Assembly: GCA_964372955.1 (NCBI GenBank)
Contig: CAYJTC010000003.1
Coordinates: 1-40,892 of the forward strand
Length of the DNA: 40,892 nucleotides
Origin: an uncultured Planctomycetia bacterium
GTDB taxonomy: Bacteria; Omnitrophota; Gorgyraeia; 1-14-0-20-64-10
Direction: 5' to 3'
Shown: positions 14,690 through 40,892 of the stretch, one piece after another
Numbering within the stretch: position 1 is the first letter of the stretch
How the letters are laid out: each line of letters opens with the position of its first letter
The notes under the pieces: model-generated
What the model was told of the DNA's origin: nothing
Database searches by the model: none
The model's input: the letters and a program-made list of their open reading frames with translations, nothing else
Program-made: the position numbers and the translations under genes

Positions 14690-14808
14690 GAGAGATTCCT
14701 CCTAATTTCTAACTATTTAACACTTTCCGACTAAATTATACCTCATCGGCCAAGGGTTTTCAAGAGCCATCCCACCGTAGGGAAATCTTTGGTAGACTGA
14801 AGAGCATC

Positions 14809-26611: not shown

Positions 26612-26661
26612 TTGTCATTTCCTGCCCAGATAAGATATATTTAAGATTGATGAAAATCAAT
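26612..26661 (+). promoter_or_regulatory. Promoter P1 (TTGTCA-18 nt-TATATT) plus palindromic operator ATTGAT-GAAA-ATCAAT
   Basis: Sits in an AT-rich island within GC-rich DNA. -35 at 26612-26617, -10 at 26636-26641, palindrome at 26646-26661. The 9-mer TTTCCTGCC in the spacer is shared with P2. Confidence 0.5.
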
Positions 26662-26696
26662 TAACCATAATTATTAAAAATGAGGAAAGTTGAAGT

Positions 26697-26924
26697 ATGG
26701 CATCCGAAATTTTAACCGTAGGGCAAGTTGCGGAACTTCTCCATTTGCATCCGATGACCGTTTACCGTCTGGCCAAAGAGGGCAAACTCCCTGGTTTCAA
26801 GGTGGGGGGCCGCTGGCGGTTTGACCGGGGAGCGATGGAGATCTGGATGGTGGACCGGGCTCAAGTGGCCAAGCTGGAGGGGGAGATCCGCCGATTGAAG
26901 TCATCAGGAGAAACTCATGGATAA
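26697..26924 (+). CDS. Excisionase-family (HTH_17, MerR-like) DNA-binding protein with a coiled-coil tail
   Basis: LTVGQVAELLHLHPMTVYRLAKEGKLPGFKVGGRWRFDRGAMEIWM is the classic HTH_17 signature. Confidence 0.8.
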   Translation: MASEILTVGQVAELLHLHPMTVYRLAKEGKLPGFKVGGRWRFDRGAMEIWMVDRAQVAKLEGEIRRLKSSGETHG

Positions 26925-27312
26925 AACGAGGATTTTGCTGGTGGATGATGAGCCGGACCTGGTTCAACTGGTCGCATTGAGGCTGCAGGCGGCCGGGTAC
27001 GCGGTGACCGCCGCTTACGACGGCCAGCAGGGGCTGGATCAGGCGAAGAAATCGCGGCCGGATCTGATCATTTTGGATTTGATGCTGCCTAAAATGGACG
27101 GGTACAAAATCTGCCGCCTGTTGAAGTTTGATGAGCGATACAAATCGGTCCCCATCCTGATCTTCACCGCCAGGGCCCAGGCGGAGGATGTTAAGCTGGC
27201 GATGGACTGTGGAGCCGACGCTTACTTAACCAAACCGTTTGAAGCCCCCGTTCTTCTGGGAAAGCTCGCCGAGCTGCTCCAGAAGGCGAAGGCGGGGGAA
27301 AGAAAGGAGTGA
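26917..27312 (+). CDS. Receiver-only response regulator RR1
   Basis: LLVDDEPD...DLIILDLMLPKMDG...ILIFTA...YLTKPF. No output domain. Overlaps the HTH gene by 8 nt. Confidence 0.9.
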   Translation: MDKTRILLVDDEPDLVQLVALRLQAAGYAVTAAYDGQQGLDQAKKSRPDLIILDLMLPKMDGYKICRLLKFDERYKSVPILIFTARAQAEDVKLAMDCGADAYLTKPFEAPVLLGKLAELLQKAKAGERKE

Positions 27313-27317
27313 TTCCG

Positions 27318-27713
27318 ATGGAACAGTCCACACTGCTGTTGGTGGATGATGAGGCGGACCTCTTGGATTCCCTTAAAACCGATTTGGAGATACAGGGATA
27401 CCGGGTGCTGACCGCTTTAGACGGAACCATTGCCTTGGAGAGCGCCCGGAGCCAACAGCCGGACCTGATTCTTTTGGACTTGATGCTGCCCCGGCTGGAT
27501 GGGTACCATGTGCTTAAGCTTTTGAAGTCGGATGAGCGATACCGGAAGATCCCGGTGCTGGTGATCACCGCCCGGGCTGACGCGCAGGATCTGATGCTGG
27601 CTTTGGAATGCGGAGCCGACGGATGCCTGGTCAAACCGATTCAGCGAGAGGCCTTGCTGGAACGGATCCGGGCTCTGGTGAGTCCTCCCAGCGGAGAGGG
27701 AGCCGCTCTGTGA
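27318..27713 (+). CDS. Receiver-only response regulator RR2 (paralogue of RR1)
   Basis: LLLVDDEAD...DLILLDLMLPRLDG...VLVITA...CLVKPI. ATG at 27318 with AAAGGAG upstream; a GTG at 27309 is the alternative. Confidence 0.9.
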   Translation: MEQSTLLLVDDEADLLDSLKTDLEIQGYRVLTALDGTIALESARSQQPDLILLDLMLPRLDGYHVLKLLKSDERYRKIPVLVITARADAQDLMLALECGADGCLVKPIQREALLERIRALVSPPSGEGAAL

Positions 27714-29296
27714 GAGGCCGTTCTCAGACGCTGGACCAATGGCTTAACCGCCTGGAGACCCAGCTTCAGCTGGACCGCCTGATGGTGGGATGCTGCCAAG
27801 CGCTGCTGGAGTTCAGCGGCGCCGACCGCTGCTCGATCATGGTGCTGGACAATAAGTCAGAAGAACTGGTGGTCCGCTGGGCGCAGGGCAGCCGGGTCAA
27901 GCCGCGGAACCTCCAGCCGAACCTGAAATTCCGAGTGGGCGAAGGGCTTTGCGGCTGGGTGGCCCGTTCCCAGAAGGCCTTCTGCACGGTCGACGCCACC
28001 AAGGAGCCCCGCTTCCTTCCGTTTCGTGAGAAAGAAGCCGCGCGGCTGCGTCCGGTCCGGGCGATCTGCTGTCTGCCTCTGGTGCTGGAAGGCCGCACGG
28101 TCGGGGTCGTCAACCTGTCCAGTCTTTCCTCCTCCAAAAAGTTCCGCCGCGTTCAGGGATCGGAAGTCCACCGCTTTCTGAACCGTCTGGGCCGCGTGAT
28201 CGGGCAGGCGACCCTCCTGCATGAGATGGAGGCCTCCTCCCGGCGTTTCAGAGCGATGGCCAAGGCGACTTCCCAGACCGTGGCGCAGGTCAGCCACGAG
28301 GTGCGCACCCCTTTGTCCTTGATCACCGAAGGGACCCAGCAGCTGCTCGACGGCTTAGTCGGAGAGCTCACCCCGCCGCTTCAAGAGCGCGTGCTGTTCA
28401 TCAAGCATCAGGCGGACCGAATGCTCCAGTTGGTGACCGAGCTGCTGGACATCTCCCGGATTGAGGCGGGCCGTCTGGTTCCTCACCGGCAGCCGATGAA
28501 GCTGGATTCGGTGATCGAGGAGGTCCGCCGCAGCTACGAGCCGCTGGTAGCTCCCCGGCGGCTGACCCTGGAGCTGGATCCGGTTCCGCCGGTTTACGCC
28601 GACCGGATGCGGGTGGCGCAGATTCTGGAAAATCTGCTCACCAACGCGGTCAAATTCACGCCGCCCGAGGGGTCGATCACCCTGCGGCTGTCGGCCCGCG
28701 GATCCTCCGCTGAATTGGCGGTCTCGGACACCGGGATCGGCATTTCCAAAGGGGAACAGCGCCGGCTGTTCGAAAAATTCTTCCAGCCCAAAACGCCGGC
28801 CAGCTTCGCCCACCGGGGGACTGGGCTGGGGCTGGCGATCGTCAAAGAGATCGTCCAGCTTCATGGGGGGACGATCCGCGTCTCTTCCGAGCCCAACCGC
28901 GGAACCACCTTTATCGTGAGCCTTCCTTTATACACGCCGGCCTTCGCCTTGACGGAGGAGTTCCGGGTGATGCGGGAGCAGGCGGCCCGGGAGGGAGTTT
29001 CGCTCGTCTTCCAGCTTCTGAGGAACGGCTCGATCGATCGGCCGGAGGTGGTGGATCTTTTGCGCCGGCATCTGGCCCGGGAGGACCGGGTGTTGGTGAA
29101 TCCTCAGGGGGGTGGGCTGGCGATCCTTTCCGTCTGCGATCCGGCCGGCTCCCAGGCTCTGCGCCGCCGGCTGGAGGATCTGCTGGCCTCCAAACCGGAG
29201 TGGGTGGATCTGAAGAATCTGCGCTGGAGCTCGGTGCTGGTTCCCCAGGAGAGCTCGGAGCTGGCCGGCGTGATACAGATGGCCCACCAGCGATGA
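27710..29296 (+). CDS. Soluble sensor histidine kinase HK1: GAF, HisKA, HATPase_c, and a degenerate GGDEF-like C-terminal domain
   Basis: GTG at 27710 overlaps the RR2 stop (GTGA). GAF: ADRCSIMVLD...GLCGWVA...VGVVNLSS. H-box SHEVRTPL. N/G boxes NLLTNAVKFT, DTGIGI, GTGLGLAIV. No TM segment. Confidence 0.85.
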   Translation: MRGRSQTLDQWLNRLETQLQLDRLMVGCCQALLEFSGADRCSIMVLDNKSEELVVRWAQGSRVKPRNLQPNLKFRVGEGLCGWVARSQKAFCTVDATKEPRFLPFREKEAARLRPVRAICCLPLVLEGRTVGVVNLSSLSSSKKFRRVQGSEVHRFLNRLGRVIGQATLLHEMEASSRRFRAMAKATSQTVAQVSHEVRTPLSLITEGTQQLLDGLVGELTPPLQERVLFIKHQADRMLQLVTELLDISRIEAGRLVPHRQPMKLDSVIEEVRRSYEPLVAPRRLTLELDPVPPVYADRMRVAQILENLLTNAVKFTPPEGSITLRLSARGSSAELAVSDTGIGISKGEQRRLFEKFFQPKTPASFAHRGTGLGLAIVKEIVQLHGGTIRVSSEPNRGTTFIVSLPLYTPAFALTEEFRVMREQAAREGVSLVFQLLRNGSIDRPEVVDLLRRHLAREDRVLVNPQGGGLAILSVCDPAGSQALRRRLEDLLASKPEWVDLKNLRWSSVLVPQESSELAGVIQMAHQR

Positions 29297-29715
29297 AGAA
29301 AATCTTGATTGTGGAGGATGAGCCGGATTTAGCGAAGCTCATGCAGATGAGGCTGGCCTCCGCCGGTTATGAAACGTGCGTCGCGCCTGACGCTCTCGTG
29401 GCGGTGGAAGCGGCCCACCGGTTTGGGCCGAACCTGATTCTTCTGGATCTGATGCTCCCGGCCGGCGGCGGCCTGGGGGTCCTCAACGGCCTGAAGGCCT
29501 CCATCTACACCGCCTCCATCCCGGTCCTGGCGGTGACCGCCATCCCCCGCAACACCTTCGCGGACGAGAAGTTGCTTTTGGACAAGATCGACCAGATAGG
29601 TCTGGCTGGATACCTGCAGAAGCCTTTTGATCCCAAGGCGCTGTTGTCGGAGATTGAGCGCCTTTTATCGGGGTCGGAGCGCCGCGGCCCTTCGGGAAAC
29701 GAAACCAAAGAGTGA
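29293..29715 (+). CDS. Receiver-only response regulator RR3
   Basis: ILIVEDEPD...NLILLDLMLP...VLAVTA...YLQKPF. ATGA overlap with HK1. Confidence 0.85.
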   Translation: MKKILIVEDEPDLAKLMQMRLASAGYETCVAPDALVAVEAAHRFGPNLILLDLMLPAGGGLGVLNGLKASIYTASIPVLAVTAIPRNTFADEKLLLDKIDQIGLAGYLQKPFDPKALLSEIERLLSGSERRGPSGNETKE

Positions 29716-29724
29716 GGTGAGACC

Positions 29725-30105
29725 ATGAAGACGGTTCTGATCATCGATGACGAGCCCGACGTCAGGGCCCTGTTGAACGTGCGGCTGACCGCCAACGGGA
29801 TGAAGATCCTGGAAGCCCCCGACGGGCCCTCCGGCATCGCCCTGGCCAAAGAACAGCGACCGGATTTGATCCTGCTGGACATCATGATGCCGACGATGGA
29901 CGGGGTGGAGACGTTTCACGCCCTCAAGAAAGATCCCCAAACTCAGAAGATCCCGGTCATCTTTTTGACCGTCCTGGCCCAGAACATCGAGCTGACCAAG
30001 CACAACCTGGGGGTGGGGGACAGCTACGCGATCTTAAGCAAGCCCTATCATCCGCAGGAGCTGATCGGAGAGATCCGCCGGGCGCTGGGAGAAGAGTCCC
30101 CATGA
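29725..30105 (+). CDS. Receiver-only response regulator RR4
   Basis: VLIIDDEPD...DLILLDIMMPTMDG...VIFLTV...ILSKPY. Confidence 0.9.
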   Translation: MKTVLIIDDEPDVRALLNVRLTANGMKILEAPDGPSGIALAKEQRPDLILLDIMMPTMDGVETFHALKKDPQTQKIPVIFLTVLAQNIELTKHNLGVGDSYAILSKPYHPQELIGEIRRALGEESP

Positions 30106-31757
30106 CGGAAGCGGTCCGGCGTCCTGAAGAGGAGCTGGTCGAAGAAGGGCTGATCACCGCCGAGCAGCTGCGGCAGGCTCAGGCGGAGGCGGTCCGGTCC
30201 GGACAGACGGTCCGGCAGGCGCTGGTCCGGTTGAAATGGATCGATCCGGGCACCCTGGCCCAATGGCTGAGCCGCTTCTTGGGGATCCCGCGGGTGGAGC
30301 TGGGCTCCTACCTGGTCGACGCCCAGGTACTGGAGGCCCTGCCGGAAGCGCTGGCCCGGAAGCACCGGGTGATCCCCTTGTTCAAGCTGGGCCAGACCCT
30401 GACGGTGGCCACCGCGGATCCGATGAACCTGGCGGCCTTGGATGAGCTGCGCCTGCGCACCCACATAACCATCGACCCGGTGGTGGCCACGGAGGAGGAG
30501 ATCCTCCAGGCGATCGAAGAGTATTACGGGGCCAAGGGGCATCTCGAGGAGCTGGTCACCGATCTGACCCAGGAGAAGCTGGGCCTGAAGGCCGGCCAGG
30601 CCCCCGAGCTCAAGCGTCTTCAGGGGCTGGTCACCGAGCCGCCGGTGATTCGGCTGGTGAACCTGCTCTTAAGCGACGCGATCCGGGCCCGCGCTTCCGA
30701 CATCCATTTGGAGCCGGAGAAGGAGATCTTCCGGGTCCGGTTCCGGGTGGACGGGATCCTGAGGGAGGCGACCACCTTGCCTAAACACTTAGAGCCGGCG
30801 GTGGTTTCCCGGGTCAAGATCCTGGCCAATCTCGACATCGCGGAACGGCGCAGGCCCCAGGATGGGCGGTTCCGGGTGGCGATGGAGGGGCACGAGGTGG
30901 ACCTGCGGATCTCGGTGATGCCCTGCATCGATGGAGAGGCGGTGGTCTTAAGACTGCTGGACACTCAGGGCCTGAGGGTGGGGTTGGAGGAGCTGGGGAT
31001 GGAGCCGGAGCTGTTTTCCAGGTATCAGGCCCTCTTGAAGCGCAGCTGGGGGATTCTCCTGGTGACCGGCCCCACCGGCTCTGGCAAGACCACGACCCTG
31101 TACGCTTCCCTGGCCGGCCTGAACGCGGTGGAGCAAAACATCGTCACCCTTGAAGATCCGGTCGAATACCGGTTGGACGGCATTCGGCAGATCCCAATCA
31201 ACCCGGCGGTGGGGCTGACCTTCGCCACGGGACTGCGCTCTATCTTACGGCAGGATCCCAACGTGATCATGGTCGGAGAGATCCGGGACCAGGAGACTGC
31301 CGAAATGGCTATTCAGGCGGCCTTGACCGGGCACCTGGTCTTTTCCACCCTACACACCAACGACGCCCCCACGGCGATCACCCGCCTGCTGGACATGGGG
31401 ATCGAGCCGTTCCTGGTGGCCTCCAGTTTGATCGGGGTGGCGGCTCAGCGGCTGGTCCGGGTGATCTGCCCGGACTGCAAAGAGCCGGATCGGTCGGCGC
31501 CTGACGCCGGTTTTTTTAAAGGAAGGGGCTGCCGCAGGTGCGAGATGACCGGTTTCCGGGGCCGGATCGGGATCTTCGAGCTGATGGGTTTGGATGAGCA
31601 GATCAACCGTTTGACCCTGGCGAAAGGATCGGCGGCGCAGATCAAGGAGGCCGCGATCCAAAAAGGGATGCGGACCCTGCGGGAAGACGGGCTGGCTAAG
31701 GCGGCTTCCGGCGTCACCACGATCGATGAGGTGATGCGGGTGATCCAAGAACAGTGA
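30102..31757 (+). CDS. pilB: GspE/PilB-family type IV filament assembly ATPase with an N-terminal T2SSE_N (MshEN-like) domain
   Basis: Walker A GPTGSGKTTTLY, Walker B/Asp box DPNVIMVGEIRD, His box GHLVFSTLHTND, tetracysteine CPDC...CRRC. ATGA overlap with RR4. Confidence 0.9.
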   Translation: MTEAVRRPEEELVEEGLITAEQLRQAQAEAVRSGQTVRQALVRLKWIDPGTLAQWLSRFLGIPRVELGSYLVDAQVLEALPEALARKHRVIPLFKLGQTLTVATADPMNLAALDELRLRTHITIDPVVATEEEILQAIEEYYGAKGHLEELVTDLTQEKLGLKAGQAPELKRLQGLVTEPPVIRLVNLLLSDAIRARASDIHLEPEKEIFRVRFRVDGILREATTLPKHLEPAVVSRVKILANLDIAERRRPQDGRFRVAMEGHEVDLRISVMPCIDGEAVVLRLLDTQGLRVGLEELGMEPELFSRYQALLKRSWGILLVTGPTGSGKTTTLYASLAGLNAVEQNIVTLEDPVEYRLDGIRQIPINPAVGLTFATGLRSILRQDPNVIMVGEIRDQETAEMAIQAALTGHLVFSTLHTNDAPTAITRLLDMGIEPFLVASSLIGVAAQRLVRVICPDCKEPDRSAPDAGFFKGRGCRRCEMTGFRGRIGIFELMGLDEQINRLTLAKGSAAQIKEAAIQKGMRTLREDGLAKAASGVTTIDEVMRVIQEQ

Positions 31758-31760
31758 ATC

Positions 31761-31878
31761 CACGACTCATGCAAAACCGTTCGTGCTGATCCTGAGCAAA
31801 GTCGAAGGGTCGAAGCACGAAATGCCTCTTCACCCTTCGACAGGCTCAGGGTGAACGGCTCAGATTGCATGACTCGTG
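31761..31878 (+). mobile_element. MITE copy C (118 bp)
   Basis: Same TIRs as copy B. Direct repeat TGAATC at 31755-31760 (contains the pilB stop TGA) and at 31879-31884. It is inserted in the first heptamer of the H4 left arm. Confidence 0.85.
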
Positions 31879-31884
31879 TGAATC

Positions 31885-32098
31885 GTGAATAGTGGATAGT
31901 GAATCGTTATGAAAGTGCAGAGCTACAAAGAGCTGGAGGTTTGGAAGAAGGGGGTTGACATTGTGGGCCGTCGAAGGCATATTTCGGACGCTGAACTTGT
32001 CAAGCTAAACGAACATCTGGATCATGAAAGCCGAATGCTGATGAATTTGATCAAGCGGTTGCGGAGATGACGATCCACGATTCACGATCCACGATGGA
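31885..32098 (+). repeat. Heptamer-array hairpin element H4, enclosing a short ORF
   Basis: Left arm: GTGAATA GTGGATA GTGAATC (31885-31905), plus a MITE-split GTGAATC. Right arm: CGATCCA CGATTCA CGATCCA CGATGGA (32071-32098). The right arm is the reverse complement of the same TG(A/G)ATCG family. Confidence 0.85.
31909..32070 (+). pseudogene. Truncated four-helix-bundle protein gene (23S rRNA intervening-sequence protein / Avd-like family), 53 codons
   Basis: MKVQSYKELEVWKKGVDIV... matches the usual N-terminus (SYKDL.VWQKA). ...ESRMLMNLIKRLRR matches the usual C-terminus. The middle ~60-70 aa of a normal ~120-aa member are missing. Too short for the ORF track. Confidence 0.6.
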
Positions 32099-32108
32099 CA
32101 GTCTTTAG

Positions 32109-33335
32109 ATGCCCGCGTTCGCCTACCAGGCCAGAGATCAACAGGGGCGCCTCGTTCGGGGAATCTTGGAAGCGAAAAACCCCGTTTCTTTGGCGGAGCA
32201 TCTGCGGCGGATGGGCTACCTGGTCAGCCGGATGGATCCGGTGTCGGTCTCCGCTCAGAAGATTTTGAATCTTCGATGGGGCCGGGCGGTCAGTCCGGAA
32301 GGGCTTCTTTTGGCGGTGATCCAGCTGGCTAACTTAGTCGAGGCGGGCGTCCCGTTGATCGCCAGCCTCCAGTCGGTCGCTTCGCAGGCGGGGAGTCCCT
32401 CTTTACGGGAGGCGCTGGAAGCGGTTTGCCGGGAGGTGGAGGGGGGAACGCCGTTTTCTCAGGCCTTAAGCCATCAGCCCCCTGTTTTTCCCAAGCTGAT
32501 GGTCAGTCTGGTTTCCGTGGGAGAGGCCAGCGGCCATCTCGATGCGGTCCTGGCCCGGTTCGCCAGCTTTCTGGAGAAGGACTTGGCGTTGACCCGGGCG
32601 GTCCGGGGGGCTCTGCTTTATCCCGCTCTTTTGTTGACGGCGGCGGCCGGGCTGGTCCTGTTCGTTGTCACCTTCGTGGTCCCGCAGTTCGCCTCCCTGT
32701 TCGCCCGGGCCGGGATCGGGCTGCCTACACCGACTCGGATCCTGCAGGCGATCGGGGAAGCGATCCGGACCCGATGGTTGCTTTTGCTGGGATTAGTCGG
32801 GGTGGCGCTGGGGGGCATCGGGTGGGCTCTGAGAATTCCCGCGGTCCGTTTCCGGATCGATCAGGGGCTCCTGAAACTTCCGGTGATAGGCCCTTCCATC
32901 CATCAGGCGGTGGTGGCCCGGTTCGCCCGAACGCTGGCCACCCTGGTCTCCAGTGGTGTTCCAATCGTCGGCGCCCTTGAAACGGCCGAAGGAGTGGTGG
33001 AGAATCAGGTGATCGTTCAGGAGCTGCGGCGGGTCCGGACCGCCGTGGTGCAGGGGGAACGGATCGCCGCCACCTTGGCGGTCAGCGGGGTCTTTCATCC
33101 GGATGCCATTCAGATGATCCGGGTGGGGGAAGAGGCCGGCCGGCTGGACGCGATGCTGGAGAAGATTGCCGACTTCTATGAGCTCCAGGTCAACTATCGA
33201 TTGAGGCAGATGACCACCCTGCTGGAGCCGATTCTGCTGGTGGCCATGGGCGGGGTGGTGGCGTTCATCATGGCCTCTTTACTGCTTCCGATGTTTGACA
33301 TGGTGAAGGTTCTTCAGCGAGGAGGATTTCGGTGA
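32109..33335 (+). CDS. pilC: GspF/PilC-family platform protein
   Basis: Two T2SSF repeats: SLVSVGEASGHLDAVL... and MIRVGEEAGRLDAML... with the LLEPILLVAMGGVV TM pattern. Confidence 0.9.
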   Translation: MPAFAYQARDQQGRLVRGILEAKNPVSLAEHLRRMGYLVSRMDPVSVSAQKILNLRWGRAVSPEGLLLAVIQLANLVEAGVPLIASLQSVASQAGSPSLREALEAVCREVEGGTPFSQALSHQPPVFPKLMVSLVSVGEASGHLDAVLARFASFLEKDLALTRAVRGALLYPALLLTAAAGLVLFVVTFVVPQFASLFARAGIGLPTPTRILQAIGEAIRTRWLLLLGLVGVALGGIGWALRIPAVRFRIDQGLLKLPVIGPSIHQAVVARFARTLATLVSSGVPIVGALETAEGVVENQVIVQELRRVRTAVVQGERIAATLAVSGVFHPDAIQMIRVGEEAGRLDAMLEKIADFYELQVNYRLRQMTTLLEPILLVAMGGVVAFIMASLLLPMFDMVKVLQRGGFR

Positions 33336-33796
33336 AAAGGAGAAAGGGTTTCACCTTGGTGGAACTAATCATTGTGATCGCCGTCATCGCGATTCTTTTG
33401 GGGATCGCCCTGCCGCGCCTTCGGGGCATGATCGACGAAGGCAACACCGCCAAGGCAGCGGCGGAACTGCGGGCGCTTCAGGCGGCGGTGGAGTCCTATT
33501 ACATCCATAACTCCAAGACCTATCCGGCCGACGGCAGCGCCACCTGGCAATCGGCCCTGACTGCCGCCAGCACCAGACCCAAGCTGATCGGCACTGCCTT
33601 GAATGACCCGTTCGCCATCTCGGCGACCCAGTACCAGTATGACAAGTCGGCCAACGGCCTTTACTACATCATCTGGTCGGTCGGCGTGGACAACACCGCC
33701 GACATCACCGGCATCGACAACACCGGCGCTTTGACCGGCACCGCGGACGACGACATCTATGTTTCCAACGGCATCTCCGGCACTGGAGGCTTTTAG
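33332..33796 (+). CDS. GspG-like major pseudopilin / type IV pilin (prepilin-type N-terminus)
   Basis: KGFTLVELIIVIAVIAILLGIALP cleavage/methylation motif with Glu+5. GspG-like LQAAVESYY...YP...DPF...YYIIWSVGVDN...DDDIY. GTG start overlaps the pilC stop. Confidence 0.85.
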   Translation: MKRRKGFTLVELIIVIAVIAILLGIALPRLRGMIDEGNTAKAAAELRALQAAVESYYIHNSKTYPADGSATWQSALTAASTRPKLIGTALNDPFAISATQYQYDKSANGLYYIIWSVGVDNTADITGIDNTGALTGTADDDIYVSNGISGTGGF

Positions 33797-33822
33797 AGTC
33801 GGCTCTAAAAAAGCCGGCTTTT
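33797..33822 (+). terminator. Possible (leaky) terminator after the major pilin gene
   Basis: AGTCGGCT (33797-33804) pairs with AGCCGGCT (33812-33819) with one G-U pair, a 7-nt loop, then TTT. Confidence 0.45.
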
Positions 33823-33891
33823 GGGTTAAACTTCGCCAACACTCGCCATTCCTCTTTGTTTTTAGCCAATAGTGTCAAAGTACCCCCTCCA

Positions 33892-33921
33892 TTGACAAGC
33901 TTTCCTGCCGCCAGCCATACT
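33892..33921 (+). promoter_or_regulatory. Promoter P2 (TTGACA-18 nt-CATACT), giving a near-leaderless HK2 mRNA
   Basis: TTGACA at 33892-33897 and CATACT at 33916-33921. The ATG at 33932 has no SD. TTTCCTGCC (33901-33909) is shared with P1. Confidence 0.45.
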
Positions 33922-33931
33922 TTGAATTGGA

Positions 33932-35284
33932 ATGAGAGAGAAATCGTACTTGACTGTGGAAGAGGTGGCGGATCGCTTCGGAGTCAATCCGACGACGGTC
34001 TACCGGATGGTCCAGACCGGCAAGCTGCCCGGCTTCAAGCTGGGAGGCCAATGGCGTTTCAGCGAAGAGGCGCTGGAGAAGTGGGTGGGTGACCGGGGGA
34101 ACGTTCAGGAGCAGTTGGAGGCCAAGGGCCGCTTGCTGGAGGAGGCCCATCGGCGCCTTCAGGAGCTCTCCCGGCTGAAGGATGAGTTCGTGGCCAGTGT
34201 CAACCATGAGCTCCGGACCCCCTTGACAGTCGTCAAGGAGGGAGTCAGTCTCCTGACCGATGAAGTTTTAGGCCCGCTCAATGAGAAGCAGAAGGACTTT
34301 CTCGGGACGGTCCATCAAAACATCCAACGCTTGGAAGCGCTCATCTGGGATCTGCTGGATCTCTCGAAGATCGAGGCTGGGCGGCTGCCTCTGTTTAAGA
34401 CCCGGGTGCCGTTGCGGGACCTGCTGGAGAAGGCGCTTTCAAGCTACAAGAAGATCGCCAAGAACCGGACCCTTCAGTTGAAAATCGAAGAGGTCCCGGA
34501 CGTCTTCGCGGATCCTAACCGAGTCCTTCAGGTGATCGGCAACCTCTTTTCCAACGCGGTGAAGTTTACGCGGGAAGATGGAAGGATCACGCTGGCGGCC
34601 CAAAAGTCCAATGGGATGGTGGCGCTCTCCGTCCAGGATGACGGCCTGGGGATCGCCCCGGAGGATTTGCCTAAACTTTTCCAGAAGTTTTCTCAATTGG
34701 GAAAAGAGATGACAGTCCGCCGGGGGACCGGCTTGGGGCTGGCTCTCTGCAAACAGCTGGTGGAGATGCATCAAGGAACCATCGGAGTCCATTCAGCGCC
34801 CGGAAAGGGATCCACCTTTACCTTTACCCTGCCGGTCTATTCCCCCCGGTTCGCTTTGGAAGAGACCTTTGGAAGGCTGCTGAAGTCGGCCGGGTCGGAC
34901 AAGGCAGTCAGTCTGCTGACGATCGACTGCAGCGCTTTTCTAGAAGAGAAAGAGATCGGGTTGCCCGACTCGATGGCTCGGGTCCCAAAGGTGGCTGAGT
35001 TTGTGCAGGCGTATGTTCATCAAGGGGACGCGGTCTTGAGCGTAGAGCCCCGCTGGGTGGTGATTCTGGCTCCCGTGGACTCCGAGGGAGCGCAAGCCCT
35101 GCGAAATCGGCTGGAAGAGCTGTTGAACGACTGGCGCGAGCTGGTTCGGGAAGAGAAGCCGCATCAGCGGCTCTCGCTAGGGATAGCGACCTATCCGGAA
35201 GATGGCCCGGAGGCGCTGGCACTTTTTGCCAAGGCGACAGGAGCTTCTTTAAATAGCTTTTCATTCCTCACCGCAATCCGCTAA
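33932..35284 (+). CDS. Histidine kinase HK2 with an N-terminal excisionase-type HTH: HTH_17, coiled coil, HisKA, HATPase_c, degenerate GGDEF-like domain
   Basis: LTVEEVADRFGVNPTTVYRMVQTGKLPGFKLGGQWRFSEEALEKWV. H-box NHELRTPL. NLFSNAVKFT, DDGLGI, GTGLGLALC. C-terminal ...VVILAPVDSEGAQALRNRLEELL...RLSLGIATYPEDGPEALALFAKA. Confidence 0.85.
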   Translation: MREKSYLTVEEVADRFGVNPTTVYRMVQTGKLPGFKLGGQWRFSEEALEKWVGDRGNVQEQLEAKGRLLEEAHRRLQELSRLKDEFVASVNHELRTPLTVVKEGVSLLTDEVLGPLNEKQKDFLGTVHQNIQRLEALIWDLLDLSKIEAGRLPLFKTRVPLRDLLEKALSSYKKIAKNRTLQLKIEEVPDVFADPNRVLQVIGNLFSNAVKFTREDGRITLAAQKSNGMVALSVQDDGLGIAPEDLPKLFQKFSQLGKEMTVRRGTGLGLALCKQLVEMHQGTIGVHSAPGKGSTFTFTLPVYSPRFALEETFGRLLKSAGSDKAVSLLTIDCSAFLEEKEIGLPDSMARVPKVAEFVQAYVHQGDAVLSVEPRWVVILAPVDSEGAQALRNRLEELLNDWRELVREEKPHQRLSLGIATYPEDGPEALALFAKATGASLNSFSFLTAIR

Positions 35285-35295
35285 TCTATAGATCC

Positions 35296-35718
35296 ATGGT
35301 CCCAAAGCGGTCCTCCGGGTTCACCCCATTAGACAGGCAAAGCCGCCGTCTAACGGGGTTCACCTTAATCGAGGTGATGATCGCGATCCTGCTTATTGTC
35401 GGGGCGGTGGCCTCCGCCGCCTTCATGATGGGACGGGGGATGTTCGCGGCCACCGACACCGAAACTCTTCAACAGGGGATCGCCCTGGCCCAGGAGAAGA
35501 TGGAAAATCTTCGGGGCACCGCTTTCGCCTCCATCGCCAGCGAATCCCGCGCTCCAATTGGCGGTTGGACCGGTTTCGAGCGGCAGGTCGCGGTTTCCCA
35601 ACCGGCCGGCACCAACAGCGACTTCAAGCAGGTGGGGGTGACCGTCTACTGGAGCACCGTGGAAGGAGAACTCTCCACCTCGCTGACCACCTACGTCGCC
35701 AATGTCATCAATAACTAA
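35296..35718 (+). CDS. Minor (pseudo)pilin, GspI/PilV-like
   Basis: TGFTLIEVMIAILLIVGAV prepilin motif after an unusually long ~21-aa leader. 140 aa. Confidence 0.75.
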   Translation: MVPKRSSGFTPLDRQSRRLTGFTLIEVMIAILLIVGAVASAAFMMGRGMFAATDTETLQQGIALAQEKMENLRGTAFASIASESRAPIGGWTGFERQVAVSQPAGTNSDFKQVGVTVYWSTVEGELSTSLTTYVANVINN

Positions 35719-35724
35719 CAAACC

Positions 35725-35789
35725 GGTTGAAAGTTTAAAGTTTAAAGTCTCAAATTTTCGGTTTAACTTCCAACCTTCAACCTTAAACT
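35725..35789. repeat. Heptamer-array hairpin element H5 (AT-rich)
   Basis: Left arm: GGTTGAA AGTTTAA AGTTTAA AGTCTCA (35725-35752). 9-nt loop. Right arm: TTTAACT TCCAACC TTCAACC TTAAACT (35762-35789). Confidence 0.85.
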
Positions 35790-35806
35790 TGCGACTAGCG
35801 TTGCGA

Positions 35807-36319
35807 ATGAGGGGGGTTACCTTGGTTGAGCTGATCATCACGCTGCTGCTGTTCGCCGCGCTCATGACGGCAATCGCGATGGGACTCAATCCCCTCCTGC
35901 TGGCTTGGTCGAGCCACCAGGACCGGATGGAGCTTCAGCGGGAAACACAGCACGGGCTGGAGCGGGCGATCCGGGACCTGCGGGGGGCGACCGCTCTTCA
36001 GAACGACGCCAACCACGCGATCCGCTACACCCTCCGGGAAAGCGGGGTGAGCAACTCCTACATCCTTTACTTGTACAACGCCTCGGACGTTTGGCCGCCG
36101 GCCTACAACCAAGCGACCTATCAACTGCGCAAGATCAGCTTGACCGGCGGGATCAACGGAACCTTTACCTACGGAAGCGGCACCCTCTTGATGCGGGATA
36201 TCCGGCCCCCCGCGAACTCGGACCTGTCGGTCAGCAGTAAAGTGGCCACCCTGGACCTATCGCTGACGCGCTTTGATGAGACCTTTCGGCTGGTCGAACG
36301 GGTGAAGCGAAGAAATTGA
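35807..36319 (+). CDS. Minor (pseudo)pilin, GspJ/PilW-like
   Basis: MRGVTLVELIITLLLFAALMTAIA prepilin-like N-terminus. Start moved to the ATG at 35807, because upstream track codons translate H5. Confidence 0.7.
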   Translation: MRGVTLVELIITLLLFAALMTAIAMGLNPLLLAWSSHQDRMELQRETQHGLERAIRDLRGATALQNDANHAIRYTLRESGVSNSYILYLYNASDVWPPAYNQATYQLRKISLTGGINGTFTYGSGTLLMRDIRPPANSDLSVSSKVATLDLSLTRFDETFRLVERVKRRN

Positions 36320-37152
36320 AGACGCGTCCGCGGGGATCCATCCTGGTGATGACGATGGCGCTGGCGATCCTGCTGGTGAGCCTGGTGGGGGGGTTCCTTT
36401 TCGCCACGGGTGTTTTCATCTCCAACAGCGGCTGGGAGGAGACCGACATGAAAACCTTCTGGCTGGCGGAGGCCGGTCTCCAGAAGGGGATCTGGAATTT
36501 AAAGACCCCAACCGGCTCCGGCGGGCAGGGGGAGAACTGGACCACCGCCGGCACGACGGAAAATTTGAGCGGCGGCAGCTACACCCTGGTAGTGGCCCGA
36601 TACGATTTCGCTCTGGCGGCCAACGGGGCGACCGCTTCGGCCTCTTCGTCCGGAGGGGGAACGGTGCCTGGCAACGCCATCGATGGAAACGACGGAACTT
36701 ACTGGGAATCTGGGGGAAACCCCAGCAACAGCAACCCTCAAGACCTAATCATCCAGTTCCCTTACACGCTCACGATCAACAAGGTCCGGTTCCTGGCCCC
36801 CACCGCCAGCACACGGCCTCGGGACTACGAATGGGCCGTTTCCACGGATGGCAGCAGCTACACGACGGTGGTGACGGTGAGCAACAACAATGTCACTGAT
36901 CGGACCGATACTTTTTCCGCCCAGTCCAATGTGAATTACCTGCGACTGCGCACGACGCAAGACGGCCAGAACAATCCGCAGCGAGTAAGGGTCTCCACTC
37001 TGGAGGCGATTGGGAGTAAAATCACCTCAGCCGGGACGGTCACCGCCACCGGGCAGAATTACACCCGGACCGTGATCCAAACGGTGGTGACGGACGACGG
37101 ATCGCCGCAGAACCAGGTGGCCTACTACGAGCCGGATTGGGTAGAGCAGTAG
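36316..37152 (+). CDS. GspK/PilX-like minor pilin with a C-terminal F5/8 type C (discoidin, galactose-binding-like) domain
   Basis: N-terminal hydrophobic helix SILVMTMALAILLVSLVGGFL, then AEAGLQKGIWNL (PilX_N-like). Later NAIDGNDGTYWESGG...IIQFPYTLTINKVRFL...YEWAVSTDGSSYTTV is typical of a discoidin domain. TTG start. Confidence 0.7.
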   Translation: MKTRPRGSILVMTMALAILLVSLVGGFLFATGVFISNSGWEETDMKTFWLAEAGLQKGIWNLKTPTGSGGQGENWTTAGTTENLSGGSYTLVVARYDFALAANGATASASSSGGGTVPGNAIDGNDGTYWESGGNPSNSNPQDLIIQFPYTLTINKVRFLAPTASTRPRDYEWAVSTDGSSYTTVVTVSNNNVTDRTDTFSAQSNVNYLRLRTTQDGQNNPQRVRVSTLEAIGSKITSAGTVTATGQNYTRTVIQTVVTDDGSPQNQVAYYEPDWVEQ

Positions 37153-37169
37153 AAGAGCATATCCCTACG

Positions 37170-38747
37170 ATGAAGCCTAGACGGATTATAGGGTTGGATT
37201 TAGGCCATGCCGCCTATAAGCTGGCGGTCGTCGAGCCGCGGGACGCCCAGGCGGTCCTGGTCGATCTGCGGTGGCAGGATCTCCCTCCCCAGGCGGACCC
37301 GAACGCCCGCCGTGCCGCTTTGAAGAAACTGCTGGAAGGGATTCCGGTTTCAAAGTCCACCGGTGTGGTCAGCATCGTGGACGACCCGTACGGCTGCCTT
37401 CAGCAGGTGACGGTTCCTGCCATGACCGGCGCGGAGTTAGCCGAAGCGATCCGGTGGGAGCTTCAGCGCTATCTGGCGGTCCCCCCGGAAGAGACCGTTG
37501 CCGATTACCAGCTCCTGGAGGAGATCGAGGAAGCCGGATCCAAGAGACTCAAGCTCCTGGCCGCCGCTCTGCCGACGGCGGCGATCCGGAATCAGCTGGC
37601 CTTTCTGGCGGCCGAAGAGATCCGCCCCTTCCGGCTGGTTCCGCCGGCCGCGGCGGTGGTCGCCTGGTGGGCTCACACCGGTGGAGCTTCCATGGAGATC
37701 CCTCAAGCCATTCTTTCCGTCGGTCAAAAGTCCTCGGAATTTCTGGTGGTGCAGGGCAAGAGGCTCCTGTTCGCGCGCAAGATCCCGGTGGCTGGAGGAG
37801 ATGTGACCCACGGAATGACCGGAGTCCTGATGACGGCGCAGGGGCAGGTGGGCCTCTCCGAAGCGGAGGCCGAACAGGTCAAGCGGGAAGCGGGGATCCC
37901 GGGGACCAACGCCCCGGAGGCGGTCATCAAAGGAATCTCCGGCATGCAGCTTTTGTCTCTCATCCGGGGGAGCCTGGAGCGGCTGGCGGCGGAGGTGGAA
38001 CGTTCTTTGGCCTTCTACGGGGAATCGGTGGCCGGCCCTCCGGTTTCGGAGCTGATCTTGATTGGAGGAGGAGCGCACTTGAAAGGACTGCCGGAATGGC
38101 TTCAGGAGCGGTTGAGGGTCCGGGTTTCGGTGCCGGGGCCGTTGGCCGACATTCCTCTGGCGCCCGGATTTTCGCCCGGCTCCGTCGCCGGGAAAGAGTT
38201 GAGCCTGATTCCGGCCCTGGGAGCGGCTTTAGGAGGGCAGGCCGGAATCAACCTTTTGCCTTTGGAGATGAAGGAAGCGGCTCGGCTTCAGGTCCGGCGT
38301 TCTCTCTTCACCGGAGCCGTGACGGCGATCCTGCTGGGAGCCGCGCTTCTTCGGGTCGGAATGGGAATTACCCGGCAGGTTCTGGAGACCCAGATTGCCG
38401 CTTTTCGTCTGGAGAAAGAGGCGATCGTGCCGGAGATGGCCCGGGCGAGGGTGGCCTTGGAGGTCCAGCAGAGGCAAAAACAGGAACCGCCCTGGGAGGA
38501 GATGTTCCGGCAGATGAGTTTAGCCCTTCCCCGGGAAGCCTATCTGACTGCCTTCAGCGTCGAGGAGCGCCGGATGACGCTTCGGGGGCGGGTCCGGGAT
38601 CTGGGCCGTGCCACCGATCTGGTCTTGGCCGGCTTCATCCGGAGCTTAAACGAGGGGGTTTTCACCGAGGCTCAGTTAGTCTCCAGCCGGCAGGATGAGA
38701 CCGGTTCCCGGGAGGCGGAGTTTGAAATTCGATGCTCCTTAAAATAA
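37170..38747 (+). CDS. pilM: PilM-PilN fusion protein (actin-like ATPase domain, TM helix, PilN-like periplasmic domain)
   Basis: IIGLDLGHAAYKLAVV..., ILIGGGAHLKGLPEWL (PilM), then INLLPLEMKEAARLQVRRSLFTGAVTAILLGAALL (PilN signature plus TM). Confidence 0.8.
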   Translation: MKPRRIIGLDLGHAAYKLAVVEPRDAQAVLVDLRWQDLPPQADPNARRAALKKLLEGIPVSKSTGVVSIVDDPYGCLQQVTVPAMTGAELAEAIRWELQRYLAVPPEETVADYQLLEEIEEAGSKRLKLLAAALPTAAIRNQLAFLAAEEIRPFRLVPPAAAVVAWWAHTGGASMEIPQAILSVGQKSSEFLVVQGKRLLFARKIPVAGGDVTHGMTGVLMTAQGQVGLSEAEAEQVKREAGIPGTNAPEAVIKGISGMQLLSLIRGSLERLAAEVERSLAFYGESVAGPPVSELILIGGGAHLKGLPEWLQERLRVRVSVPGPLADIPLAPGFSPGSVAGKELSLIPALGAALGGQAGINLLPLEMKEAARLQVRRSLFTGAVTAILLGAALLRVGMGITRQVLETQIAAFRLEKEAIVPEMARARVALEVQQRQKQEPPWEEMFRQMSLALPREAYLTAFSVEERRMTLRGRVRDLGRATDLVLAGFIRSLNEGVFTEAQLVSSRQDETGSREAEFEIRCSLK

Positions 38748-39256
38748 AAGAGCGGTCTCCTCGAGTTTTTTGGAGCGGTGTTGCGGCCTCCGGGCTCATT
38801 CTCCTTTGGGGGATCTATGGGCCTGCCTTGGCCGCGATCCGGAAAGCCGGCCTGGAGCGGGATCGACTTCACCGGGAGCTGATCCAATACCGGGGGATCA
38901 TCGATCCTCTGCGCCGGGGGGAACTGCCCACACTTCCCGAGGCCGGGGACGTTTCGACGGTTCTGGAGGAGCTCAACCGCCTGGCCCGCCAGCAGCAGAT
39001 TCGATTTCTGGAGGTGTCCCCCGGCGTTCTACGTCCCGGCGATCCCAAAGAAATGATGATTCTCCCGGTCGACCTGCAGCTGCAGGGAGAGTACCGAACC
39101 CTGGCGGAATTCCTCGGCCGGCTTTCCCAAACCCCTGCTTTGGGGGCGGTGACGGTGCGCCGGTTGAGCATCGACCGGGAGGAACGGTTCCTTCCCCGGC
39201 TGAAAGCCAGGCTGTCGCTGGAGATTTTCTTAAGCGGGGTAGGGCGTGAATCCTAA
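38732..39256 (+). CDS. pilO: PilO-like alignment protein
   Basis: N-terminal TM helix and coiled coil. LPVDLQLQGEYRTLAEFLGRLSQTPALGAVTVRRLSI is PilO-like. Confidence 0.7.
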   Translation: MLLKIKERSPRVFWSGVAASGLILLWGIYGPALAAIRKAGLERDRLHRELIQYRGIIDPLRRGELPTLPEAGDVSTVLEELNRLARQQQIRFLEVSPGVLRPGDPKEMMILPVDLQLQGEYRTLAEFLGRLSQTPALGAVTVRRLSIDREERFLPRLKARLSLEIFLSGVGRES

Positions 39257-39665
39257 ACAGAAACAACTGCTCGCCGCGGTGTTGGGAGCGGCGGTGATCT
39301 TGGTTTGGATCCGGGCCTTGGGCGGCCGGCCTGCCCGTCGAGCTTCCTCAATCCTGCCGGCGGCCCAGACCGCGCCCCAAGAACCCGTGGTTTCTCCCCG
39401 CCAGACCCCCTCCGCCGACTGGGGAGAGAATCCTTTCATGGCTAATCGCCAGCCGGCCGCTTCCGGTTCCGCCTCGGCCGCAGAGATGGAGAGCGACCTG
39501 GTGCTCAACGGAATCCTCTGGGATTCGAAGAACCCCTCCGCCGTGGTCAACAATCAGGTGGTCGGAGTGGGGGACCCCCTGGGTCCCTGGAAGGTGGTGG
39601 AGATCCTCAAGGATCGGGTCATCCTCTCCGACGGCGCTTCCACTCAAACTCTTACCGTCGACTAA
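39246..39665 (+). CDS. PilP/GspB-like small periplasmic protein
   Basis: GTG start and TM anchor. C-terminal LVLNGILWDSKNPSAVVNNQVVGVGDPLGPWKVVEILKDRVIL resembles the PilP/GspB-type beta domain. Confidence 0.55.
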   Translation: MNPKQKQLLAAVLGAAVILVWIRALGGRPARRASSILPAAQTAPQEPVVSPRQTPSADWGENPFMANRQPAASGSASAAEMESDLVLNGILWDSKNPSAVVNNQVVGVGDPLGPWKVVEILKDRVILSDGASTQTLTVD

Positions 39666-39673: not shown

Positions 39674-40892
39674 TTAACTGCAGCCAGAGGTGGCCCCGCA
39701 GTTGAAGCATTTGTAGCAGCTGCCGGAGCGAACCATCATCGATCCGCAGTCCGGGCAGGGCGGGGCGTCCACCTGGCCCACGAAGGAATGGCTTTCGGTG
39801 GTGTGCCGGTTCGGCCCCAGATTGGAGCCGGTGCCGGCAGTCGGGGTCGGCTGGGTGACGTCGGCCTGATTGGCCGCCAGGTCGGTCACCGTGGAGGGAG
39901 GGGTCGGCTGTTTGTCGGCCGGCAGGAATTTCAGCGCCATCCAGCGGAAGACGTAGTCCAAGATCGACTGGGCGAACCGGATCTGCGGGTTCGAGGTGAT
40001 TCCGGCTGGCTCGAACCGCATGTGGCTGAACTTTTTGACCAGCGCCTCCAGCGGCACTCCGTACTGAAGAGCCAGGGAGATCGCGGTGGCGAAAGCGTCC
40101 AGCAACCCGGAGATGACAGTCCCTTCCTTGGACATCACGATGAAGATCTCCCCCGGTTTGCCGTCCTCGTAGAGCCCCACCGTCACGTAGCCGTCGTGTC
40201 CGGCGATGGAGAATTTGTGGGTGACCGCGTTGCGTTCGTCCGGCAGGTAGTGCCGCCGGGGCCGGTAGGGACCCGGCTCGGCCGCGACCCTCCCGGCCTC
40301 CGCTTCGGAAGCTTTCTCCTCGGATCCGCCGCTTTTTCCGGTGGAAAGAGGCTGGACCCGCTTGGAGCCGTCCCGGTAGATGGCGATGGCTTTCACGCCC
40401 GCCTTCCAGGCCTCGATGTAGGCCTGCATGATCTCCTCCACCGTGGCGTCCGAGGGGACGTTCACCGTCTTGGAGATCGCTCCACTGATGAACGGCTGGG
40501 TCGCTCCCATCATCCGGACGTGGCCCATGTAATGGATCGAACGGGTGCCCTGGGCCGCTTTGAAGGCGCAGTCGAACACGGCCAAGTGCTTGGGGTCCAG
40601 GCCCGGGGCCCCCTCGATCGTTTCCTCTTTGTCCAGGTAATCGCAGATTGCTTTGATCTGAGCGTCGGAGTAGCCGAGCTTCTTCAAAGCGCGCGGGACC
40701 GTGTTGTTGACGATTTTCATCAAGCCCCCGCCCACCAGCTTCTTGTACTTGATCAGCGCGATGTCCGGCTCCACCCCGGTCGTGTCGCAGTCCATCATGA
40801 AGCCGATGGTGTTGTGGCTGATGAATCCGTTGGCCAGGTAGGTGACATTCTCCGGTATGGAAAGATCATACGTCGGCTGCTCGCCGCCCTCT
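39674..40892 (-). CDS. nrdJ: Adenosylcobalamin-dependent (class II) ribonucleotide reductase, C-terminal part (5' end beyond the right edge)
   Basis: ...SHNTIGFMMDCDTTGVEPDIALIKYKKLVGGG...GAISKTVNVP...AIAIYRDGSK... and a C-terminal zinc finger CPDCGS...CYKCFNCGATSGCS. The reading frame stays open upstream of the track start. Confidence 0.85.
   Translation of the reverse strand, partial: EGGEQPTYDLSIPENVTYLANGFISHNTIGFMMDCDTTGVEPDIALIKYKKLVGGGLMKIVNNTVPRALKKLGYSDAQIKAICDYLDKEETIEGAPGLDPKHLAVFDCAFKAAQGTRSIHYMGHVRMMGATQPFISGAISKTVNVPSDATVEEIMQAYIEAWKAGVKAIAIYRDGSKRVQPLSTGKSGGSEEKASEAEAGRVAAEPGPYRPRRHYLPDERNAVTHKFSIAGHDGYVTVGLYEDGKPGEIFIVMSKEGTVISGLLDAFATAISLALQYGVPLEALVKKFSHMRFEPAGITSNPQIRFAQSILDYVFRWMALKFLPADKQPTPPSTVTDLAANQADVTQPTPTAGTGSNLGPNRHTTESHSFVGQVDAPPCPDCGSMMVRSGSCYKCFNCGATSGCS

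Follow-up and report, generated by a model that had tools for sequence, protein, structure and literature searches.

The 40,892-nucleotide (nt) stretch of DNA analyzed here (the window) is the whole of contig CAYJTC010000003.1, from an uncultured bacterium (assembly GCA_964372955.1) placed by GTDB in the phylum Omnitrophota. Sixteen genes at positions 26612-39665, all on the + strand, combine the parts of a type IV filament machine with two soluble kinases (HK1 and HK2), four stand-alone receivers of the response regulator type (RR1 to RR4), and a small DNA-binding protein. Here, we report the layout and conservation of this locus and propose that its receivers may gate the assembly motor of the filament.

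Genes were identified from an open reading frame (ORF) listing with translation, domains were assigned with Pfam and NCBIfam scans, and promoter-like sites were found with a consensus scan. From 5' to 3', the locus contains the following features.

26612..26641, + strand: promoter-like site TTGTCA-18-TATATT, 5' of the first cluster gene
26697..26924, + strand: HTH_17 (excisionase/MerR-like) small stand-alone DNA-binding protein, 75 amino acids (aa) (Pfam HTH_17, 57 bits)
26917..27312, + strand: RR1, stand-alone receiver, the conserved "RR1-type" of the family (Response_reg, 102 bits)
27309..27713, + strand: RR2, stand-alone receiver, RR1 paralogue (46% identity; Pfam), with GTGA 4-nt overlaps on both sides
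27710..29296, + strand: HK1, soluble GAF-HisKA-HATPase_c kinase with a C-terminal degenerate GGDEF domain (Pfam), no transmembrane segment
29293..29715, + strand: RR3, stand-alone receiver with an E-D acidic pair (Pfam), not in the closest relative, L001
29725..30105, + strand: RR4, stand-alone receiver (Pfam), its stop overlapping the ATPase start (ATGA)
30102..31757, + strand: assembly ATPase, PilB-like, MshEN-type N-terminus and T2SSE core (T2SSE, 447 bits; MshEN, 87 bits)
32109..33335, + strand: inner-membrane platform PilC/GspF (T2SSF, 200 bits, two repeats)
33332..33796, + strand: major pilin, GspG-like, prepilin site KG|FTLVE (N_methyl, 37.8 bits; T2SSG, 24.5 bits, cut-off 21)
33892-33921, + strand: second promoter-like site, just past the pilin gene and preceding HK2
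33932..35284, + strand: HK2, soluble HTH_17-HisKA-HATPase_c kinase with a C-terminal degenerate GGDEF domain (Pfam), no transmembrane segment
35296..35718, + strand: minor pilin 1, G|FTLIE, weakly PilV/GspH-like (Pfam/NCBIfam)
35702..36319, + strand: minor pilin 2, G|VTLVE, start probably at 35807
36316..37152, + strand: modular minor pilin 3, pilin-like N-terminal helix (no E5) and carbohydrate-binding domain of F5/8 type C (discoidin)
37137..38747, + strand: PilM-PilN fusion (PilM_2, 59.5 bits, cut-off 27; PilN, 27.6 bits, cut-off 22.8)
38732..39256, + strand: PilO (30 bits, cut-off 22), one N-terminal transmembrane segment
39246..39665, + strand: last gene, 139-aa bitopic protein with a C-terminal beta domain, weakly GspB/GspC/PilP-like (T2SSC, 24.3 bits, cut-off 27)

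All 16 genes stand in the order given by the original prediction, which had been made from the sequence letters and their ORFs, and the tight packing described there was confirmed, with 4-nt ATGA/GTGA/TTGA overlaps at six gene junctions, among them RR4/ATPase, where the ATPase start lies on the RR4 stop.

Homologues of the ATPase in a large protein collection fell into two tiers, tier 1 being 65-80% identical (~40 clusters) and tier 2, a much larger group, 53-59% identical. Among GTDB representatives, the closest ATPase was that of a Ca. Omnitrophota metagenome-assembled genome (MAG) (79% identity; L001), all others being ≤51% identical, and every homologue listed with a source name was from Omnitrophica or Omnitrophota. 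Gene contexts were taken from L081 and L082 (tier 1) and L083 and L084 (tier 2), all four with precomputed Pfam annotation, and from 80 metagenome loci found by N-terminal ATPase alignment; in each of these loci, counterparts of the 16 window proteins were sought with tblastn. The background set consisted of 75 unrelated PilB/GspE loci (ATPase 38-51% identical).

A receiver gene abutted the ATPase gene in 5/6 tier-1 and 32/43 tier-2 loci versus 3/75 unrelated PilB/GspE loci, and a kinase gene lay ≤5 kb upstream of the ATPase in 5/6, 17/25, and 2/75, respectively; at least two receivers were present in 5/6 tier-1 and 17/25 tier-2 loci. The distance from receiver stop to ATPase start was within −10 to +15 nt in 27/40 loci, the ATGA overlap being the commonest junction. 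The placement of a receiver next to the ATPase is not chance. A synteny survey had been named in the original prediction as the test of whether the receiver and kinase genes belong with the filament genes, and by these counts they do. Outside Omnitrophota, a receiver was seen only sporadically abutting a PilB/GspE-type ATPase, as in a Thermodesulfobacteriota MAG (L007:9573-11632; RR1-type receiver, 53% identity) and in a candidate phyla radiation (Gottesmanbacteria) MAG (L040:8719-11650; kinase upstream).

The full locus is kept in L001, L081, L082, and L085-L087, and in tier 1 the chromosomal neighbours are kept too. Tier-1 loci have one to three receivers, with a GAF kinase in 5/6. The same order with other sensors was found in L083, L084, and ~30 metagenome loci, the typical tier-2 order being [HTH_17]-receiver-kinase-receiver-RR1-type receiver-ATPase-PilC-pilin-minor pilins-PilM/N-PilO-PilP-like. 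Two tier-2 loci (L093:1215-4839 and L120:1828-7096) carry a methyl-accepting chemotaxis protein (MCP), a CheA-CheW-REC hybrid, and a CheR-TPR protein directly 5' of the receiver run, where they accompany or replace the classical kinase. Both kinases are absent from L085 (tier 1), which has a GGDEF-EAL protein (13733-15172; GGDEF, 146 bits; EAL, 266 bits) between the minor pilin genes, another link of this pilus family to cyclic di-GMP (c-di-GMP). The signalling block is an integral, conserved part of a large Omnitrophota filament-locus family, in which the sensor is swapped freely and the receivers stay coupled.

The four receivers are 126-140 aa long with Response_reg as sole domain (Pfam), and the acidic pocket, D57, T87, and K109 (CheY numbering) are intact in each; RR1 has D12/D13/D57/T87/K109 all intact. 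Orthologues of the RR1 type (52-78% identity) were found in 6/6 tier-1 and 29/43 tier-2 loci. Median identity to the window protein was 60% for the RR1 type versus 56% for the ATPase; the RR1-type receiver is at least as conserved as the motor ATPase.

Both kinases end in C-terminal extensions of 115-145 aa that belong to the GGDEF family. Scanned alone, the HK2 extension scored 24.5 bits on GGDEF (Pfam cut-off, 23.8), PF00990 matched 17/21 orthologous kinase extensions (best E=1e-12), and a profile of the kinase extensions matched PDB diguanylate cyclases with E=6e-18. The GG[DE]EF active site is present in none of the kinase extensions aligned, and the A-site of HK1 reads QGGGL. The I-site is RED in HK1 and HQGD in HK2, neither of them RxxD, and the tier-1 GAF kinases aligned likewise have a non-canonical I-site; the canonical RxxD occurs in 9/21 relatives. 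Across the kinase homologues, the kinase and degenerate GGDEF core is kept and the N-terminal sensor varies (GAF, PAS, dCache-HAMP, CHASE, REC, or none), with the HTH_17-kinase fusion being rare among HK2 homologues (one other case). Two cytoplasmic kinases had been predicted, and both are indeed soluble, with GAF in one and HTH_17 in the other, but the degenerate GGDEF domain at the C-terminus of each had been missed.

The ATPase falls below both NCBIfam cut-offs (PilB [TIGR02538], 611 versus 676; GspE, 605 versus 630). Its best PDB matches are the PilB proteins of the Geobacter and Myxococcus type IVa pilus (T4aP) at 505 bits, versus 423 for GspE, and for its N-terminal 185 aa, the PilB model gives 93 bits and that of GspE 39. 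On the MshE-related c-di-GMP motif NF053729 (cut-off, 38), the window ATPase scored 32.7 bits and eight tier-1 relatives 21-36 bits, all under the cut-off; ~38 bits was reached by 10/19 of the ATPase N-termini aligned, a count equal to the ten tier-2 members of that alignment, and two tier-2 ATPases scored individually gave 46 and 58 bits. In the window clade, the c-di-GMP motif is eroded in all nine tier-1 ATPases, and in tier 2 it is intact. The platform protein scored 350 on NCBIfam GspF (cut-off, 424) and 321 and 300 on PilC (cut-off, 700).

The major pilin scored 47.8 on NCBIfam GspG, under the cut-off of 88.9. Minor pilin 1 is kept in relatives, and minor pilin 2 is kept in tier 1 and in some tier-2 loci. 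Minor pilin 3, with a transmembrane segment at residues 5-38, scored 58.6 bits on F5_F8_type_C (cut-off, 28.2); its position is held by a T2SSK/HHH_3 (GspK-like) protein in most tier-2 loci. Three minor pilins had been listed, and three pilin-like genes are there, the lectin domain of the third having gone unnoticed. A lectin-bearing minor pilin suggests a surface-exposed adhesive pilus that would bind glycans, for example, on host or prey cells. The PilM-PilN fusion has a cytoplasmic actin-like domain, one transmembrane segment (residues 389-412), and a periplasmic PilN domain, and the actin-like PilM domain matches the PDB structures of Thermus and Myxococcus PilM. In the family of the last gene, T2SSB matched 11/18 members and T2SSC 6/18; the family profile had no significant match in PDB. 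Single-sequence structure models of the PilP-like last protein and the lectin pilin had low confidence (predicted local distance difference test, 59 and 43) and were set aside.

Domain scans of the window gave no secretin, prepilin peptidase, PilT, CheA/MCP, or output-domain regulator, in agreement with the original prediction. For the relatives, secretins were sought in the flanks (±10 kb) of 28 long loci among ORFs of ≥380 aa unexplained by the query set (n=67), of which ten were Pfam scanned, those of four long loci had precomputed Pfam, and the others were judged by eye. None was seen in these 28 loci, and no prepilin peptidase or PilT was found in the window or the relatives' flanks. Large downstream ORFs in the relatives that had been considered as secretins proved to be TpsB transporters or a porin. 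In two tier-1 loci (L001:19412-20908 and L086:19299-20525), a TpsB/FhaC-type outer-membrane transporter (POTRA_2 and ShlB) follows the PilP-like gene, where the window has nrdJ. Since the major and two minor pilins carry G|F/VxxxE sites and the locus nonetheless lacks a peptidase, absence from the locus is not absence from the genome, and the same holds for the secretin and PilT; a prepilin peptidase, judging from these sites, must be encoded elsewhere. T4aP systems are typically multi-locus, with the peptidase often shared (PMC6668835). The missing secretin, peptidase, and PilT, which the original prediction had taken as marks of a special system, therefore do not make it one.

None of the equivalog cut-offs of the type II secretion system (T2SS) was reached (GspE, GspF, and GspG), and GspL, GspM, and GspD gave no NCBIfam match; on the T4aP side, PilM, PilN, and PilO are present, the PilB-model score lies at 611 versus 676, and PilQ is not in the locus. 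From these profiles, we read the machine as a T4aP-like system with some Gsp-like parts and not as a new class of filament machine. The classification of Denise et al. would place such a system under T4aP or "generic" (PMC6668835), and "T4aP" has been reported in most Omnitrophota from TXSScan by Seymour et al. in 2023 (PMC10066038). A new class had been put forward for the filament part, and this did not stand: the ATPase is nearest T4aP PilB, PilM/N/O match, and Omnitrophota loci have already been reported as T4aP. Profiles do match both the Gsp-type pilins and PilMNOP, but the "mosaic" seen in this mixture is weaker than stated and less odd because the PilM-PilN fusion has the topology of GspL.

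Much of this machine has counterparts in the T4aP of Myxococcus, Geobacter, and Thermus, which share the PilB-type ATPase with an MshEN-type N-terminus, the PilC platform, PilM/N/O, prepilin-type pilins, and, as is probable for the window, a multi-locus layout with the peptidase elsewhere. In contrast to these, the window has PilM and PilN fused, a GspG-like major pilin, and a cap protein that bears a lectin domain (GspK-like in relatives); no PilQ follows the PilP-like gene, no PilT is nearby, and the operon itself includes kinases and stand-alone receivers. Two-component genes of the PilS/PilR pair lie inside the Myxococcus and Geobacter T4aP clusters beside pilB/pilC/pilA, where PilR, a sigma54 activator with AAA+ and DNA-binding domains, controls pilin transcription; unlike PilR, none of the four window receivers has an output domain. 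The Pil-Chp system of Pseudomonas (PilG/PilH) and the Tax/Pix systems of Synechocystis resemble the locus in the several antagonistic CheY-like receivers proposed to act on the pilus motor, and L093 and L120 add MCP, CheA, and CheR to this likeness. They differ in input, which in the window consists of two soluble HisKA kinases with no CheA, MCP, or CheW, and in linkage: the window receivers adjoin the ATPase gene, the nearest being translationally coupled, whereas the model receivers are encoded in a separate chemosensory operon.

Closer precedents exist for single components. EmvR, a single-domain receiver of Xanthomonas oryzae, binds PilB and inhibits its ATPase in a manner dependent on the phosphorylation site (PMC11973254). 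Like the Omnitrophota receivers, it stands alone with an intact D/D/T, and its direct control of the extension ATPase is the mechanism that, by analogy, we propose for them; the likeness drawn is one of mechanism, and EmvR is encoded as an orphan, away from pilB. In Synechocystis, binding to PilB1 has been reported for PATAN-type receivers, and in Xanthomonas the activity of PilB/PilT is reported to be under the control of DrdR; the pilus regulators PilG/PilH have been reviewed (PMC11656802). SgmT of Myxococcus xanthus, a GAF-kinase-REC-degenerate GGDEF protein, is a c-di-GMP receptor that affects motility dependent on type IV pili (PMC3509222). HK1 is soluble and has the same order of GAF, HisKA/HATPase, and GGDEF with a dead A-site (QGGGL in HK1, GGGVF in SgmT), but it lacks the internal receiver, and its I-site is RED, not RxxD. 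The SgmT partner DigR is a DNA-binding regulator, and SgmT is encoded outside the pil cluster, whereas HK1 would have stand-alone receivers as partners.

No description of kinases and multiple stand-alone receivers ahead of pilB was found in the open-access literature, for Omnitrophota or elsewhere, and response regulators are not mentioned in the two surveys closest to the subject (PMC10066038 and PMC6668835). The suggestion that the wiring of this locus is undescribed stands within that literature. As far as found, the wiring is conserved across the phylum and apparently undescribed; the machine and the principle of its regulation are both known already.

We are moderately confident that the locus encodes the core of a T4aP-like machine (its cytoplasmic and inner-membrane parts) with a dedicated two-component module whose receivers gate the assembly motor post-translationally. 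HK1 and HK2 would sense signals in the cytoplasm, such as a GAF ligand and perhaps, through the degenerate GGDEF domains, c-di-GMP or cues for localisation, and would phosphorylate the stand-alone receivers. At least one receiver would dock on the motor, at PilM, PilC, or the N-terminal region of PilB, and turn filament assembly on or off. The candidates for this gating role are the RR1 type and/or the receiver abutting the ATPase; the other receivers may serve as antagonists or phosphate sinks, as in PilG/PilH and PixG/PixH. Autoregulation by the HTH_17 protein at the conserved promoter is a probable addition, and the prepilin peptidase, an outer-membrane secretin, and any retraction ATPase would be encoded elsewhere in the genome. 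Gating of the motor is proposed because the receivers lack output domains, because their genes are coupled to the motor gene, and because chemosensory variants and experimental precedents exist; the chemosensory modules of L093 and L120 point the same way, since systems of this kind have CheY-like output proteins, which work through binding to other proteins. Post-translational (CheY/PilG-like) control had been put forward in the original prediction, and coupling, conservation, and precedents make it plausible, but the class of mechanism is already known from EmvR (PMC11973254).

Several observations weigh against motor gating or the form of the machine assumed with it. About 1/4 of tier-2 loci have no receiver beside the ATPase, and no receiver-ATPase fusion was found among the 120 ATPase homologues listed. 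An input of c-di-GMP at this locus is doubtful, to judge from the non-canonical I-sites and the sub-threshold MshEN motif. With no secretin seen in the 28 long related loci, surface exposure is putative, and the GspG-like pilin, the GspK-like protein of tier 2, and the T2SS-like order (E-F-G...L-like-M-like) would also fit a secretion pseudopilus. The OmpR/PhoB likeness of RR1 and RR2, together with the highly conserved HTH_17 gene ahead of them, also fits transcriptional control.

In its full form, this last possibility would make control mainly transcriptional, with the HTH_17 protein and RR1 (perhaps also RR2) acting as a split response regulator on their own promoter or the pilin gene, as PilS/PilR do, and with the motor left untouched; we consider it unlikely but give it real weight. 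It would suit the position of the HTH_17 gene, which comes first and overlaps the RR1 gene next to it by 8 nt, and the conservation of its product (188 homologues in all, the best 120 of the 188 being 62-88% identical, ~70-77 aa long, and named Omnitrophica). The cluster promoter is conserved as well: position 26612 is its −35 hexamer, and the −35 and −10 blocks are kept 5' of the HTH_17 gene in six tier-1 loci (alignment of upstream regions). RR1 is closest to the receivers of OmpR/PhoB/PleD, the output domain being absent, RR1 and RR2 score best against those of OmpR/PhoB/CseB/RpaB, and HK2 is itself fused to HTH_17, with the second promoter-like site ahead of its gene. However, the HTH_17 gene leads 5/6 tier-1 loci and is kept in only 4/28 tier-2 loci, against the 32/43 in which a receiver abuts the ATPase; no HTH_17-receiver fusion was found among the best 120 of the 188 HTH_17 homologues, and the chemosensory variants and the translational coupling to the ATPase point instead to CheY-like outputs. 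A transcriptional branch is also compatible with motor control alongside it. A reading of HTH_17 plus RR1 as a "split DigR" was discarded, since DigR has an HTH_Xre and not an HTH_17 domain (PMC3509222).

The other two alternatives concern the machine itself. Were it a T2SS-like secretion pseudopilus, the phosphorelay would gate protein secretion via a secretin encoded elsewhere, which strikes us as improbable. The pilin does exceed the Pfam T2SSG cut-off, GspF models give the platform a higher score than PilC models do, a T2SSK/HHH_3 protein holds the cap position in tier-2 loci, the last gene has weak T2SSB/T2SSC matches, and the order E-F-G-minor pilins-(PilM plus PilN, like GspL)-(PilO, like GspM) mirrors that of gsp operons, with PilT in no locus. 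These likenesses stop at the window's lack of GspD, the PilB/MshE-type N-terminus of the ATPase (93 versus 39 bits) with T4aP PilB as its nearest structures, alignment proteins that match PilM/PilN/PilO with no match to GspL/GspM, and NCBIfam scores that reach no T2SS equivalog cut-off; an adhesive filament exposed at the surface would fit the lectin module of the minor pilin, and T4aP was the class reported for Omnitrophota systems with TXSScan (PMC10066038). A secretin-independent filament peculiar to Omnitrophota, be it a periplasmic "endopilus" or one with a new outer-membrane conduit, would amount to a new class in the type IV filament superfamily, and we judge it very improbable. It would explain why no secretin was seen within ±10 kb of 28 related loci and could draw on the TpsB-type outer-membrane transporter after the last gene in L001 and L086. 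The peptidase is absent too, however, although the pilins need it, so that absence from the locus is uninformative about the genome; T4aP are usually multi-locus (PMC6668835), and proteins like the last one (GspB/C/PilP-like) make contact with the secretin in known systems.

Motor gating by the receivers could also be put more strongly, with the phosphorylated stand-alone receiver as an obligate, co-translated cofactor of the PilB-like motor and the phosphorelay having replaced direct c-di-GMP control in the window clade. The replacement would be read from the eroded MshEN motif in tier 1, the non-canonical I-sites of the kinases, and the extra receivers and second kinase in the window clade; we hold this stronger version to be a long shot. 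Speculatively, the window clade may have shifted from c-di-GMP-plus-phosphorelay control to control by the phosphorelay alone.

Three features adjoin or interrupt the cluster.

25506-26573, + strand: multi-pass membrane protein, 355 aa, directly 5' of the cluster promoter, no Pfam family
31757..32109, no strand assigned: ATPase-PilC spacer of 351 nt, outside the machine, with two inverted-repeat-flanked insertions and a 53-aa ORF
39674-40892, − strand: nrdJ, convergent with the cluster and 8 nt downstream of its last gene, running off the window end

The ATPase-PilC junction measures 351 nt in the window versus 5 nt in L081/L082 and 190 nt in L001. The first insert has 14-nt arms (31761-31774 and 31865-31878) and the second 23-nt arms (31878-31900 and 32070-32092); the two are adjacent, with position 31878 common to both, and look like small mobile insertions of the kind of miniature inverted-repeat transposable elements within the operon. 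The 53-aa ORF (31909-32070) lies inside the second and has no Pfam match, and a reading of it as a four-helix-bundle (23S rRNA intervening-sequence) protein was dropped. A membrane protein of the 25506-26573 type also precedes the locus in L081 (371 aa) and L082 (384 aa). It was considered as a divergent prepilin peptidase, but no Pfam match was obtained and no peptidase motif was seen by eye, and this is not claimed. The position of nrdJ is as predicted. Its in-frame translation starts '...YDLSIPENVTYLANGFISHN|TIGFMMDCDTTGVEPD', a junction that we take to resemble the C-terminal splice site (HN|T) of an intein in class II ribonucleotide reductase.

Genes elsewhere in the window are of the housekeeping kind (an aa3-type cox operon, a peptidoglycan hydrolase, GreA, a thiolase, an aminotransferase, and a desaturase). 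Within the aa3-type oxidase operon (COX1, COX2, COX3, and SCO1), the gene at 2412-4109 (− strand) encodes a 565-aa protein in which haem A synthase (COX15/CtaA) and haem O synthase (UbiA/CtaB) are fused. The cox operon with this fusion points to aerobic respiration in the Omnitrophota bacterium of the window.

Members of the Omnitrophota are uncultured and ultra-small, and they probably depend on hosts or live as predators. Type IV pili have been proposed to serve their attachment to hosts (PMC10066038), and the adhesive-pilus reading of the locus fits that role. Across the phylum, the locus family offers a compact "sensor to receivers to pilus motor" cassette in which the sensor varies by species and the receiver stays with the motor gene. 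Its proteins are soluble and so tractable in vitro (phosphotransfer, binding, and ATPase assays) for the gating of PilB-type ATPases by single-domain receivers, a question addressed in few model organisms so far. If the shift of control suggested for the window clade is true, the family would be a natural series of a filament motor moving from second-messenger to phosphorylation gating, with exchangeable sensor inputs. The cassette also marks the environmental or cellular signals that may trigger the attachment of Omnitrophota.

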